64,000 nucleotides of DNA from Candidatus Moraniibacteriota bacterium (GTDB lineage Bacteria; Patescibacteriota; Minisyncoccia; Moranbacterales; UBA1568). The position numbers were made by a program, and so were the translations under genes. Location of the stretch: contig CP064974.1 in NCBI GenBank assembly GCA_016699385.1, positions 532,466 through 596,465 on the forward strand. The letters run 5' to 3'. Positions 54,005 through 56,765 of this stretch are shown here, one piece after another; position 1 is the first letter of the stretch, and the number at the start of each line of letters is the position of its first letter. The notes beneath the pieces are model-generated. The model saw only the letters and a program-made list of their open reading frames with translations. It was not told where the DNA came from and searched no databases.

Positions 54005-54241
54005 TCTCAAGATGCTTTGGTATCTCTTTGGCGAACCAAAGAAATAACGACCATATGTGTGTCATTGTCTGTCTTGCGACAAACAACTTGTTCACCATTA
54101 CTCCCTAGAAAGGAGGTGATTCATCCACAGCTTCCGCTACGGATGCCTTGTTACGACTTCACCCTTATTACCAACCCCACCGTCGTCCCCGATATAAAAC
54201 GGGGCCTTCTGGTATTGCCGGCTCTCTTGGTGTGACGGGCG

Positions 54242-55123
54242 ATTATCTTCGTAAAACTCCGAATTGATGTTCCCATCGTGCCTGCGGATTTCCCGCACAC
54301 GACGAGCTCTAATGCATCGTTTGCTTAAGTGCGTAGATACTACGCAATCCTTCATCTGTGAAATGGAGATTCTTGCGAATCATTTCGAAGATGACACAAA
54401 ACGTTTCAAAGTCACTTTTCTTTGAGCGTAACCTCAAAGCATTTCTTTTGAAGAATGGAATAATAACACGTTCCAGATGTTCTCTATTGGACACTTCATA
54501 GCGATAACATTGCTGATGATTGGCACGTCTATCTTTTTGAAAATACACATTGCCACATCCGAAATAGTCTTTCAGTTCATCGAGGACTTCTTTGTCTCGC
54601 TCGATCAACTTGAGAAAAAATCTCGGCTCAACTTTCGTCCGTCGCTTGACGCGCTTGTCCGAATCGGGATTTTTCACATATACTGTGAAGCTTCCCTCTC
54701 CATCCACAAGACCAACGATATATTCTGGTGTTATCTTTTCCATATGCATTGGAGTGAACCCTTCGTCCTGATAGAGATACCAGAAGTTACTATGATTCAG
54801 CTGACTTCTTACGCCGCGTAAGTTCCATTATTCAATGCTATTGTGATACAACATTGAAACAGCGTAAGATCTCCCGGGGTCATATATCTTTCTCTTCCTG
54901 ACATTCTGAAAACGCTTTGTATTGTATCTTCCCTCTGCTCACCACCTATCCAAAGGTCGATACCGTTTTCCGCCTTTCGACGGATAATCAGACTGCCATT
55001 TGCTTCCGAATCCTTCGCCATTTCCCTCGCGAGAAACGACTATTCTTCAGCTACGCCCCAGTTGACGAATCGGGGGGAGAGATTTGAACTCTCTAGAAAT
55101 ATATACTGCCCGGCGCTTTTATT
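54242..55123 (-). mobile_element. intron in 16S rRNA (probable group I) carrying LAGLIDADG homing endonuclease ORF
   Basis: Exon 1 ends CTTGTACTCAC (plus 55124-55134) and exon 2 resumes CGCCCGTCACACC (plus up to 54241). Joining them restores the universal CTTGTACACACCGCCCGTCACACC with a single A to T difference. The intron is 882 nt. Confidence 0.7.
54309..54749 (-). CDS. LAGLIDADG homing endonuclease (intron-encoded)
   Basis: YIVGLVDGEGSF is the LAGLIDADG motif. 146 aa, single-motif type, entirely inside the 16S intron. Confidence 0.85.
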   Translation of the reverse strand: MHMEKITPEYIVGLVDGEGSFTVYVKNPDSDKRVKRRTKVEPRFFLKLIERDKEVLDELKDYFGCGNVYFQKDRRANHQQCYRYEVSNREHLERVIIPFFKRNALRLRSKKSDFETFCVIFEMIRKNLHFTDEGLRSIYALKQTMH

Positions 55124-56765
55124 GTGAGTACAAGATCCGAGAACGTATTCACCGTGACTTGGCTGATTCACGATTACTAGTGATTCCGGCTTCATGGAGT
55201 CGAGTTGCAGACTCCAATCCGAACTGGGGCCGGTTTTTTGGGATTAGCTCCGTCTCGCGACTTGGCAACCCTTTATACCGGCCATTGTAGCACGTGTGTC
55301 GCCCAGGGTGTCAGAGGGCCATGCTGATCTGACGTCATCCCCTCCTTCCTCCCCGCACCCTTTTCCCGATTATTTTCGGTAAACAGCAACAAAGAAATAC
55401 TGCCAAAGGCAACGTCTCTTCATTCTGCTCAGAAAAAAGGTGCGGGGCGGTCTCGCGTGATACGTGTAACACGCGACAGGGGTTGCGCTCGTTTCCCGAC
55501 TTAACGGAACATCTTACGACACGAGCTGACGACGACCATGCAGCACCTGGTCTAGCGGCCTCGAAGGACTTCTTATTTCTAAGATCTCCAGCTAGATTTC
55601 AAACCCTGGTGAGGTTCCTCGGTTATCGTCGAATTAAACCACATGCTCCACCACTTGTGCGGATCCCCGTCTATTCCTTTGAGTTTTAAGCTTGCGCTCG
55701 TACTTCCCAGGCGGCACACTTAACGCGTTAGCTACGGCACGGAAGGGGTCGATTCCTCCCATACCTAGTGTGCATCGTTTAGGGCGTGGACTACTGGGGT
55801 ATCTAATCCCATTCGCTCCCCACGCTTTCGTGGCTCAGTGTCAGATCGGTGCCAACCAGCTGCCTTCGCCTTTGGTGTTCTTCACGATATCAACGCATTT
55901 CACTACTACACCGTGAATTCCACTGGTCTCTCACCGCCTCAAGTCGTGCCGTTTCAAATGCAGTTCTTCGATTGAGTCGAAGGATTTGACATCTGACTAA
56001 CACGACCACCTACCCACCCTTTACGCCCAATAAATCCGGATAACGCTTGAGGTCTCTGTATTACCGCTACTGCTGGCACAGAGTTAGTAACCTCTTATTC
56101 TCCAGGTACCGTCATCGAAATTCTTCCCTGAAAAAAGTAGTTTACGACCCGAGGGCCTTCATCCTACACGCGGCATCGCTCGTTCAGGCTTTCGCCCATT
56201 GACGAATATTCTCGACTGCAGCCTCCCGTAGGAGTTTGGGCAGTGTCTCAGTCCCAATGTTGGGGGCCATGCTCTCACACCCCCTACCCGTCAGAGCCTT
56301 GGTAGGCTTTTACCCCACCAACTAGCTGATAGGACGCAGGCTGCTCCTCAAGCGATAAATCTTTACTCCGTAGAGCACATCGTGTATTAGCTTGTCTTTC
56401 GACAAATTATTCACGACTTGAGGGAACATTCCTACGTATTACTAACCCGTTTGCCGTGGGTCTAAACCCACTCGACTTGCATGCCTTATCCATGCCGCCA
56501 GCGTTCATCCTGAGCTAGGATCAAACTCTCAATAAAGATGATATTCCGAGAGCATCCGGTAAACCGAACTCCACCACTCATCTTATAATGGCAGATAAAC
56601 TCTCGAGAAGTTGCTTCCCTTCCCCTTGCGAAGATAAAGAAGACTTAAATAGATCCATGTAACTATTGGATTGACCGCAAAAAATTGCAATCATACTTTC
56701 GCAAATTGTTAAGGGGCTCTTGGCGATAAAAAAGAAGGCGGAAAGCTTTCTTCCTTCGCATGTGC

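Follow-up and report, generated by a model that had tools for sequence, protein, structure and literature searches.

A probable reduced group IIC-type intron that carries the gene for a LAGLIDADG homing endonuclease between positions 1399 and 1400 of a Moranbacteria 16S rRNA

INTRODUCTION

The insertions in rRNA genes of bacteria from the Candidate Phyla Radiation (CPR) have been surveyed, and those resembling group II introns were found only at position 1400 of 16S rRNA, a site named 16IS9, where 39 of 53 encoded a LAGLIDADG protein and none encoded a reverse transcriptase (RT) (Tsurumaki et al. 2024, PMC11270868). A second described set is the bacterial group IIC-LAGLIDADG family rns-1396, all members of which contain a linker at the 5′ end, lack exon-binding site 2 (EBS2) and IC2, and encode a single-motif LAGLIDADG homing endonuclease (LHE) in domain IV (Liu et al. 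2026, PMC13190283). This family, whose first example, according to the account given in PMC13190283, came from Thiomargarita (Salman et al. 2012), is inserted after A1396 in the sequence CUUGUACA↓CACCGC (the arrow marks the insertion point here and below), has GUGUAC as its EBS1, and includes a few members from CPR (PMC13190283, Table S4). Here, we describe an 882-nt insertion in the 16S rRNA gene of a Candidatus Moraniibacteriota bacterium, located in a 64,000-nt stretch of DNA (GCA_016699385.1, contig CP064974.1, positions 532,466 to 596,465), which is called the window and whose own numbering is used below. It is very probable that this insertion is a mobile, reduced IIC-type group II intron, which has lost the usual RT and in domain IV encodes a homing endonuclease with a single LAGLIDADG domain.

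Two further groups of introns are useful for comparison. The first are fungal mitochondrial rRNA group II introns, which are described, as summarized in PMC4424553, as splicing upstream of the GUGYG motif, as having lost EBS2 and the branch site, and as containing LAGLIDADG open reading frames (ORFs) (Li et al. 2011, cited therein). The second are canonical IIC introns, such as O.i.I1 of Oceanobacillus iheyensis, which encode an RT, have GUGYG at the splice site and a bulged branch adenosine, and insert after terminator or attC hairpins.

RESULTS

The insertion separates C1399 from C1400

The whole 16S rRNA gene, including both exons and the intron, occupies positions 54109..56536 of the minus strand, on which all other features described here are also located. 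The 5′ end at 56536 was defined by the Rfam model SSU_rRNA_bacteria (1301.5 bits), which gave the sole rRNA match in the 64-kb window, while the 3′ end was defined by alignment with E. coli rrsB. The same alignment showed that the final base of the 5′ exon is 55124 (C1399, in the local sequence CTTGTACTCAC), and that the opening base of the 3′ exon is 54241 (C1400, in the local sequence CGCCCGTCACACC). The insertion between them, 55123..54242, is 882 nt long. The initial annotation of the window had given exactly this size, within a gene of about 2.4 kb, and had located the insertion at about position 1397, which the alignment moves to 1399/1400. The 5′ exon (55124..56536; E. coli 1–1399) ends with CUUGUACUCAC (E. 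coli 1389–1399), in which position 1396 is U. The 3′ exon (54109..54241; E. coli 1400–1542 in a pairwise alignment) starts with CGCCCGUCACACC at 54241, contains the 3′ strand of helix 44, helix 45, and the anti-Shine-Dalgarno sequence CACCTCCTTT, and ends at about 54109 with GGAUGAAUCACCUCCUUU. When the flanks are joined as CTTGTACTCAC↓CGCCCGTCACACC the conserved sequence is obtained apart from U replacing A at 1396; hence, the earlier expectation that joining would restore it holds for the decoding-center sequence as a whole, while it fails at this one base. The boundary cannot be shifted so as to restore A1396 or to coincide with the Thiomargarita site, because CAC lies on the 5′ side of the insertion and CGCCCG opens the 3′ exon.

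The same boundaries were found in related genes. A scan for the endonuclease, using one genome per species, gave 80 loci, nearly all of them labelled as Patescibacteria lineages, and the 1399/1400 junction recurred in 75 of these in the form cuuguacUcac↓AAUAAA(A/C)GCGC ... GAUAAU↓cgcccguca. These 75 loci and the window make up the 76 copies that are compared below. The exon–intron–exon layout was identical on the 75 independent contigs, which were up to 738 kb long. The Rfam SSU model itself runs into the intron, as it squeezes its last ~130 positions into the intron's first 47 nt (55077–55123). Because the alignment stops there, automatic annotation would end the gene at 55077, and lose the true 3′ exon (54109–54241) together with the anti-Shine-Dalgarno sequence.

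Of the loci that were fetched, Moranbacteria-type metagenome-assembled genomes (MAGs) had the closest full-length 16S genes, with ~85% identity, which agrees, together with the endonuclease relatives described below, with the CPR/Patescibacteria-like host expected in the initial annotation. A second insertion, of ~68 nt, is present in the same gene at about 55385–55455, corresponding to E. coli ~1138 in the helix 39/40 region, where it adds a long helix (CCCCGCACC...GGUGCGGGG). This one is probably a retained expansion segment and not an intron.

The insertion follows the group II and not the group I layout

The initial annotation took the 882-nt insertion for an intron, probably of group I, rather than for an expansion of the rRNA. 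That it is an insertion of the intron type was borne out by the analysis. In favor of an assignment to group I, LAGLIDADG ORFs typically reside in group I introns, these are the commonest introns in CPR rRNA genes (PMC11270868), and Rfam group I matches do occur elsewhere in related 16S genes. However, the group I model (Intron_gpI, RF00028) gave no match, either at the gathering threshold or at E ≤ 10, in the region 53900–56700, so the P3–P9 core was not detected. When Rfam was run on 19 of the related loci, this model also gave no match inside the homologous introns, while group I introns elsewhere in the same loci were detected. The boundaries are not those of group I introns, which follow a U-ending exon and end with G, since here the exon ends with C1399 and the intron ends with U in 76 of 76 copies. 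Furthermore, the fold backed by covariation consists of group II domains I–VI, and a group IIC intron that has been published is a homologue of this one. Hence, it is extremely improbable that the element is a self-splicing intron of group I with a LAGLIDADG ORF, a reading already refuted at the level of sequence and structure, and the rRNA expansion segment, which had been named as the alternative to it, does not describe the insertion either.

In three related 16S genes, weak group I matches were located 3′ of the group II intron (L026:1389–1628, L022:1967–2181, and L010:1652–1973), with scores of 29.6–45.5 bits, which are below the gathering score of 50. Hence, in some relatives one gene contains introns of both classes.

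The only intron-related Rfam match in the window was to group-II-D1D4-1 (RF01998), at 54843..54758, just 5′ of the ORF, and it was weak (21.8 bits, E=0.49, with a cutoff of 35). The same model matched the equivalent position in most of the 19 homologous loci, in five of them above the cutoff of 35 (35.2–43.7 bits). Intron_gpII (RF00029), which describes domains V and VI, gave weak matches past the ORF in 3 of the 19 loci (25–26.5 bits, with a cutoff of 40).

The structure was then derived from two alignments, A3 with 39 copies for the 5′ part, and A2 with 67 copies for the 3′ end, and all six helical domains of the group II layout were found: domains I–III, V, and VI by covariation, and domain IV as a stem that encloses the ORF. 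RNAalifold predicted 82 pairs on A3, of which 64 were compensatory. When the basal stem of domain III was added, domains I–III comprised 86 pairs, with 95.2% of the alignment cells paired and 68 pairs showing changes on both sides. Their covariation score was 0.676, compared with 0.236 in shuffled alignments (reached in 0 of 500) and 0.09–0.14 when the partners were slid. For domains V and VI, the proposed structure on A2 contained 22 pairs, 98.2% of the cells were paired, and 15 of the 22 were compensatory, with a score of 0.537 versus 0.171 in shuffled alignments (again 0 of 500) and 0.05–0.10 after sliding. The window copy keeps the canonical pair at 81 of the 86 positions in domains I–III, and at 21 of the 22 in domains V and VI. 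These data, the junction, and the colinearity with the Thiomargarita nelsonii intron FR690945 described below define the intron as 54242..55123.

Anatomy of the intron

The intron begins with AAUAAAAGCG, in which a 5′-terminal linker AAUAA (55119..55123) separates the splice site from AAGCG (55114..55118), the degenerate counterpart of GUGYG, and the basal helix of domain I follows directly after it. The family form of this motif, A(A/C/U)GCG, is located 5–6 nt downstream of the splice site in 76 of 76 copies. Counted up to the first GCG, there are 7 nt in 67 of the 76 copies and 8 nt in the other 9, as compared with 2 nt in a canonical intron. The linker sequence AAUAAA (55117–55123) is conserved across the Patescibacteria copies (L002–L081), and it has the form AAAUAAA in Thiomargarita; this conservation suggests a functional element rather than random filler.

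Domain I (54874..55113) was defined by covariation. Its stems are I(i), I(ii), IA, IB, and ID, the last of which carries the candidate EBS1 loop, and its single IC arm is capped by a GCGA tetraloop. It contains 12 helices, 11 of which are more than 91% paired, while one 3-bp helix is 80% paired, and nearly every pair is compensatory. The candidate EBS1 is GUGAG (54938..54942) in the terminal loop of the distal stem of ID (GGUGGUGAG), and the motif GGYGGUGAG is present in this loop in 73 of 76 copies. It is complementary to CUCAC, the last five bases of the exon (55124..55128, E. coli 1395–1399), which is thus the candidate intron-binding site 1 (IBS1). A possible EBS2–IBS2 pair between UACAA in domain I and UUGUA in the exon was noticed by eye, in a search for EBS2 that was not exhaustive, and was taken as a chance match because the order is wrong, with UACAA being 3′ of EBS1.

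Domain II (54803..54873) has an 11-bp basal stem (helix 13, 98.4% paired) and a variable distal hairpin, which is missing from many relatives. The 3′ strand of its stem continues into the junction of domains II and III as the sequence AGAAGUCAGCU (54799..54809), which is invariant in the 39 aligned copies, forms the core of the RF01998 match, and has the counterpart GGAAGUCAGC in T. nelsonii. Domain III (54756..54798) consists of a covarying basal stem GAAU/GUUC (helix 14), an internal loop AUAGUA/GAAGG, and a variable distal stem, as supported by the RF01998 alignment. Domain IV (54307..54755) was delimited by inspection of the 76 copies. In its basal stem, (CUC)CAAUGCAU from the start of the ORF is paired with AUGCAUUAGAG from the ORF's end, and the ORF makes up the loop. 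In the family, the 5′ strand is (CUC)YAAUGCAU around the start codon, while AUGCAUUAGAG spans the last two codons and the stop codon, and a compensatory change, GUGCAU/AUGCAC, is found in one relative (L010). The overlap of this stem with the end of the ORF explains the invariant C-terminal Met-His-stop of the protein family.

A canonical group II domain V forms a hairpin of ~34 nt, in which the middle position of the catalytic triad is a G.U wobble and a 2-nt bulge follows 5 bp above, and the triad C-G-C is a signature of group IIC. The hairpin that was identified as domain V (54272..54306; 33–34 nt in alignment A2) is near-canonical and has 14 pairs, which are 99.8% paired, seven of them compensatory. 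Its invariant pairs C-G, U.G, C-G, and G.U are followed by five covarying pairs (one Y-R pair and four others) and a U.G pair, above which the 3′ strand has a 2-nt bulge, and then by four G-C-rich pairs and the loop GAAAU. At the triad position, counted from the bulge, C-G-C was found in 42 of the 67 copies and C-G-U in 25 of 67, including the window, with the G in the conserved wobble. Three relatives (L025, L042, and L060) have a divergent, longer segment between the end of the ORF and the domain VI hairpin, and this segment does not align with the consensus that the remaining 72 have for domain V.

In the domain VI-like hairpin (54245..54268), an AA bulge in the 5′ strand separates a helix of 3 bp from one of 5 bp, which ends in the loop AGUUUY, and all 8 pairs are compensatory. 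The 3′ strand, where the branch point is expected, is continuously paired and contains no bulged A, and the AA on the opposite strand is the sole bulge. The intron ends with the tail AAU (54242..54244). The last base is U in 76 of 76 copies and the last two are AU in 55 of 76, so the window intron, which ends with AU, has the AY boundary of group II introns.

The encoded endonuclease

The only long ORF of the insertion on the strand of the gene (54309..54749) is intact and encodes 146 amino acids with a single LAGLIDADG motif (LVDGEGSF). It matched Pfam LAGLIDADG_1 (PF00961) with E=2.3e-17 and 64 bits, well above the cutoff of 23, in agreement with the single-motif LAGLIDADG ORF of the same length in the initial annotation. 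The reading frame is conserved, as 74 of the 76 copies encode at least 135 amino acids. The number of homologues was 1661, the named ones being from Moranbacteria, and the nearest relatives were encoded in Moranbacteria MAGs with 85% identity. Across 21 diverse homologues 60 columns were invariant, among them D16, G17, E18, and G19 of the DGEG sequence. The protein also matched each half of two-domain meganucleases of the I-OnuI family, namely I-PanMI (6e-30), I-SmaMI, and I-LtrI-type enzymes. A single-domain CPR enzyme from another site, I-ShaI, was shown to be dimeric and to cut its site (PMC11270868). No palindromic target for a homodimer around the insertion point was obvious by eye.

Comparison with described introns

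The window intron shares with 16IS9 the host group, the 1399/1400 site, the Pfam family, a single-domain endonuclease, the lack of an RT, and detection by Rfam group II models (PMC11270868). As 16IS9 is defined, it is a group II-like insertion of at least 100 bp at position 1400, usually with a single-domain LAGLIDADG_1 protein, which is what was found here, and there is no essential difference between the two, given that the survey classed insertions by Rfam matches alone. Hence, the window intron belongs to the 16IS9 set. What is added to this set here are the domain map, the 5′ linker, the domain VI without a branch point, the C-G-Y triad, the domain IV stem over the start and stop codons, and the match of the candidate EBS1 to U1396.

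The similarity to rns-1396 extends over the ribozyme. The window copy was colinear with the 5′ 320 nt of the T. nelsonii rns-1396 seed (FR690945), with 54% identity over 318 nt, and the linker of the latter, AAAUAAAUGCGCC, is the same as that of the window family. The two share the linker AAAUAAA-GCGCC, the absence of IC2, the junction of domains II and III, the domain III loop, the single-motif LHE in domain IV, and the location in the decoding-center strand, and the window intron has the rns-1396 backbone with a single IC arm, the linker, and the ORF between domains III and V. In contrast to rns-1396, however, which is inserted after A1396, the window intron and its 75 relatives are inserted after C1399 (CUUGUACUCAC↓CGCCCG). 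The site of the window family is thus 3 nt further 3′, GUACUCAC↓CGCCCG as compared with GUACA↓CACCGC, and its exon carries U1396. The distal loop of domain I is GGGUGGUGAGC in the window and UGUGUGUACC in rns-1396, so that the pairing would be GUGAG–CUCAC in the former and GUGUAC–GUACA in the latter. The N terminus of the endonuclease is also visibly unlike when compared by sight (MREISPENISGFVVGEG in the window, MEKITPEYIVGLVDGEG in rns-1396). As judged from their sequences, the 1399/1400 and 1396/1397 families share one ribozyme, and the difference between their exon-binding loops exactly mirrors that between their last exon bases. This parallel difference of the loop and the exon is the best support for the candidate EBS1–IBS1 assignment.

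The fungal IIB1 rRNA introns, as summarized in PMC4424553, resemble the window intron in having no bulged branch A and apparently no EBS2, in encoding a LAGLIDADG protein instead of an RT, in their rRNA hosts, and in the I-OnuI-related enzyme. They differ in subclass, which is IIB1 and not IIC-like, in the linker, which varies from 1 to 33 nt while it is conserved here, and in the enzymes, most of which are two-domain monomers. The linker, the domain VI without a branch point, and the LAGLIDADG ORF thus occur together here in the combination known from these fungal introns. To the canonical IIC introns, such as O.i.I1, the window intron is similar in its size of ~440 nt without the ORF, its triad of the C-G-C type, and the apparent lack of EBS2. 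The junction and domain III motifs of O.i.I1, which we take to be AGAAGUCAGC...AUAGUA...GAAGG, presumably correspond to those of the window intron. It differs from these introns in the absence of an RT, of GUGYG at the splice site, and of the bulged branch A, and in its insertion in rRNA rather than after hairpins.

The U1396 exon variant

In place of the near-universal A1396, the window (position 55127) and each of the 75 related genes that bear the intron have U. As GUGAG would pair with it, U1396 is likely to be needed by the intron. An intron-less allele with U1396 (CTTGTACTCACCGCCCGTCA; the A1396 counterpart is CTTGTACACACCGCCCGTCA) was found on at least 120 metagenome contigs. Among the matches listed, most of these contigs were 73–86% identical to the 16S of the window, and 68–73% identical to that of E. 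coli. The explanation that the intron itself created U1396 is weakened by these intron-less contigs, which are mostly Patescibacteria-like. The frequent occurrence of intron-less U1396 alleles suggests instead that U1396 is a lineage variant with many empty sites, to which the intron is tuned. A few intron-less U1396 loci (L085, L086, and L094, within L082–L161) look nearer to ordinary bacteria.

Surroundings of the 16S rRNA gene

No tRNA (ARAGORN) and no 23S or 5S rRNA (Rfam) was found in the whole 64-kb window, which extends 54 kb downstream and 7.4 kb upstream of the 16S gene. The separation of the 16S from the 23S gene, which the initial annotation had derived from 2 kb of flanking sequence, thus applies over a much longer distance. 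This isolation, and the neighboring RT gene of the kind found in mobile elements, could suggest that the locus is a nonfunctional rRNA pseudogene, or an assembly chimera of a 16S fragment and unrelated DNA. However, both exons are intact and of full length (1301 bits), the anti-Shine-Dalgarno sequence is present, and the same exon–intron–exon arrangement recurs on the 75 independent contigs. Moreover, unlinked rRNA genes are common in Patescibacteria-type bacteria. Hence, it is very unlikely that the gene is a pseudogene or a chimera, and we consider it to be an intact, intron-containing 16S rRNA gene. No further copies of the intron core were found in the 64-kb window.

The 5′ end of the 16S gene is preceded, ~230 nt upstream, by a promoter-like sequence, TTGACA-18-TATACT (56766..56795), which matches 11 of 12 consensus positions; the overall number of promoter-like sites was at chance level when compared with shuffled sequences. 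About 155 nt past the 3′ end there is a terminator-like hairpin with a T-run (53935..53955), which confirms the presence of the structure that the initial annotation had placed at 53928–53955 and regarded as a terminator. This hairpin is compatible with a terminator and is not evidence by itself, as 6 terminator-like sites were found in the region versus 3.9 ± 2.0 in shuffled sequences.

Directly downstream of the 16S gene, on the same strand, is a gene for a 296-amino-acid retron-type RT (52670–53560), which matched PADLOC RT-Protease_XI (1e-66) and RT_III-A (2e-63), and, below the cutoff, NCBIfam retron_St85_RT (3.5e-53). It is followed by an ORF of 158 amino acids with a predicted membrane segment (52070–52546). 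The start of the RT gene is overlapped by a small ORF in 53529–53864, which encodes ~75 amino acids from an internal AUG (MATLKTEIETY...) preceded by a strong ribosome-binding site AAAGGAGGUG. The 547-nt spacer between the 16S and RT genes (53561–54107) is unusually structured (z = -3.43), and could be the home of a retron noncoding RNA. A link between this RT and the intron was rejected, because the RT is of the retron type and is encoded outside of the rRNA gene, and because no RT homologue was found near the 16S gene in any of the ~160 fetched loci.

DISCUSSION

The anatomy of the intron suggests how it could be removed from the rRNA. The 16S precursor would be transcribed through the intron, the ribozyme would fold into domains I–VI, and the GUGAG loop of domain I would pair with CUCAC, thereby fixing the 5′ splice site right after C1399. 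The first step would most likely be an attack by water and not by a branch adenosine, with the release of a linear intron, and the second step would ligate C1399 to C1400 and restore the decoding-center strand. An attack by water is favored because the 5-nt linker displaces the GUGYG-like motif, because domain VI has no bulged A, and because IIC introns splice in vitro mainly by hydrolysis (PMC4748821). Hence, the window intron probably splices hydrolytically. On the DNA level, homology to characterized enzymes suggests that a homodimer of the 146-amino-acid protein, which is the expected mode of action for a single-motif enzyme, would cut intron-less 16S alleles near CUUGUACUCAC↓CGCCCGUCA, and that repair from the intron-bearing copy would spread the element by homing.

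Several observations weigh against the assignment to group II or against parts of this mechanism. The window copy scored below every Rfam group II gathering threshold, with 21.8 versus 35 bits for RF01998 and no match to RF00029 at E ≤ 10. Two textbook features of group II introns fail, as the 5′ splice site lacks GUGYG and a branch adenosine is absent. The loop of domain V is GAAAU on 4 bp, and not GNRA on 5 bp, and the triad of the window copy is C-G-U. The EBS1 and IBS1 sides are both invariant within the family, and hence allow no covariation test of their pairing. It has also been reported that branching is not in every case prevented when canonical features of domain VI are lost (PMC13190283), and the RNA may self-splice or need host factors, and may use hydrolysis, branching at a non-bulged A, or circularization.

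The same departures could be expected if the element had once been an intron but had degenerated and lost self-splicing, and is either excised by host RNases without ligation, which would leave a fragmented 16S rRNA, or depends on a trans-acting host factor. Two canonical features of the catalytic pathway are missing, the window copy is under the Rfam thresholds, and bacterial intervening sequences that are cut out by RNase III without ligation do exist and were considered for CPR (PMC11270868). On the other hand, strong structural selection acts on the core of the ribozyme in the 76 copies, and the pairs at the catalytic positions of domain V are invariant. The intervening sequences of the RNase III type are short extended helices that replace the tip of a helix and contain no ribozyme core, whereas this element has a conserved multidomain fold and is inserted in the single-stranded 1399/1400 strand of the decoding center, where, judging from the structure of the ribosome, a nick would be unlikely to be tolerated. 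Moreover, the related fungal introns with 5′ insertions and without a branch site self-splice by hydrolysis, according to the summary in PMC4424553 (Li et al. 2011, cited therein). Hence, it is unlikely that the element is a degenerate intron, and we favor its identification as a reduced IIC-type intron.

When the two families are considered together, they could represent one lineage of ribozymes, whose target was shifted by 3 nt along the strand of the decoding center, with the loop changing from GUGUAC to GUGAG and the endonuclease presumably changing in step. The window family would then be tuned to U1396 lineages, and its AAUAAA linker together with the domain VI without a branch point would make it obligately hydrolytic. 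We regard the chances of this combined interpretation as about even.

Introns of this kind have already been catalogued in CPR bacteria and are homologous to the Thiomargarita intron, so the present data do not overturn current knowledge. The present contributions are the anatomy in detail and the connection of site 1396 with site 1399, which are in neither of the two published surveys (PMC11270868, PMC13190283). Because the intron is inside the binding site of the universal 1391/1392–1406 primers, and lengthens the gene to 2.4 kb, surveys based on PCR miss the organisms that carry it, and standard rRNA annotation pipelines would mis-annotate the gene. CPR organisms typically have a single rRNA copy (PMC11270868), and one 16S gene is present in the window, which is the part of the genome covered here. 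As the intron interrupts the most conserved strand of the decoding center of the ribosome in organisms of this kind, its precise splicing must be essential. The element would be a clean case of a group II ribozyme that trades retro-mobility for homing at the DNA level, and its comparison with the Thiomargarita intron may serve as a natural experiment on the joint retargeting of a ribozyme and an endonuclease.

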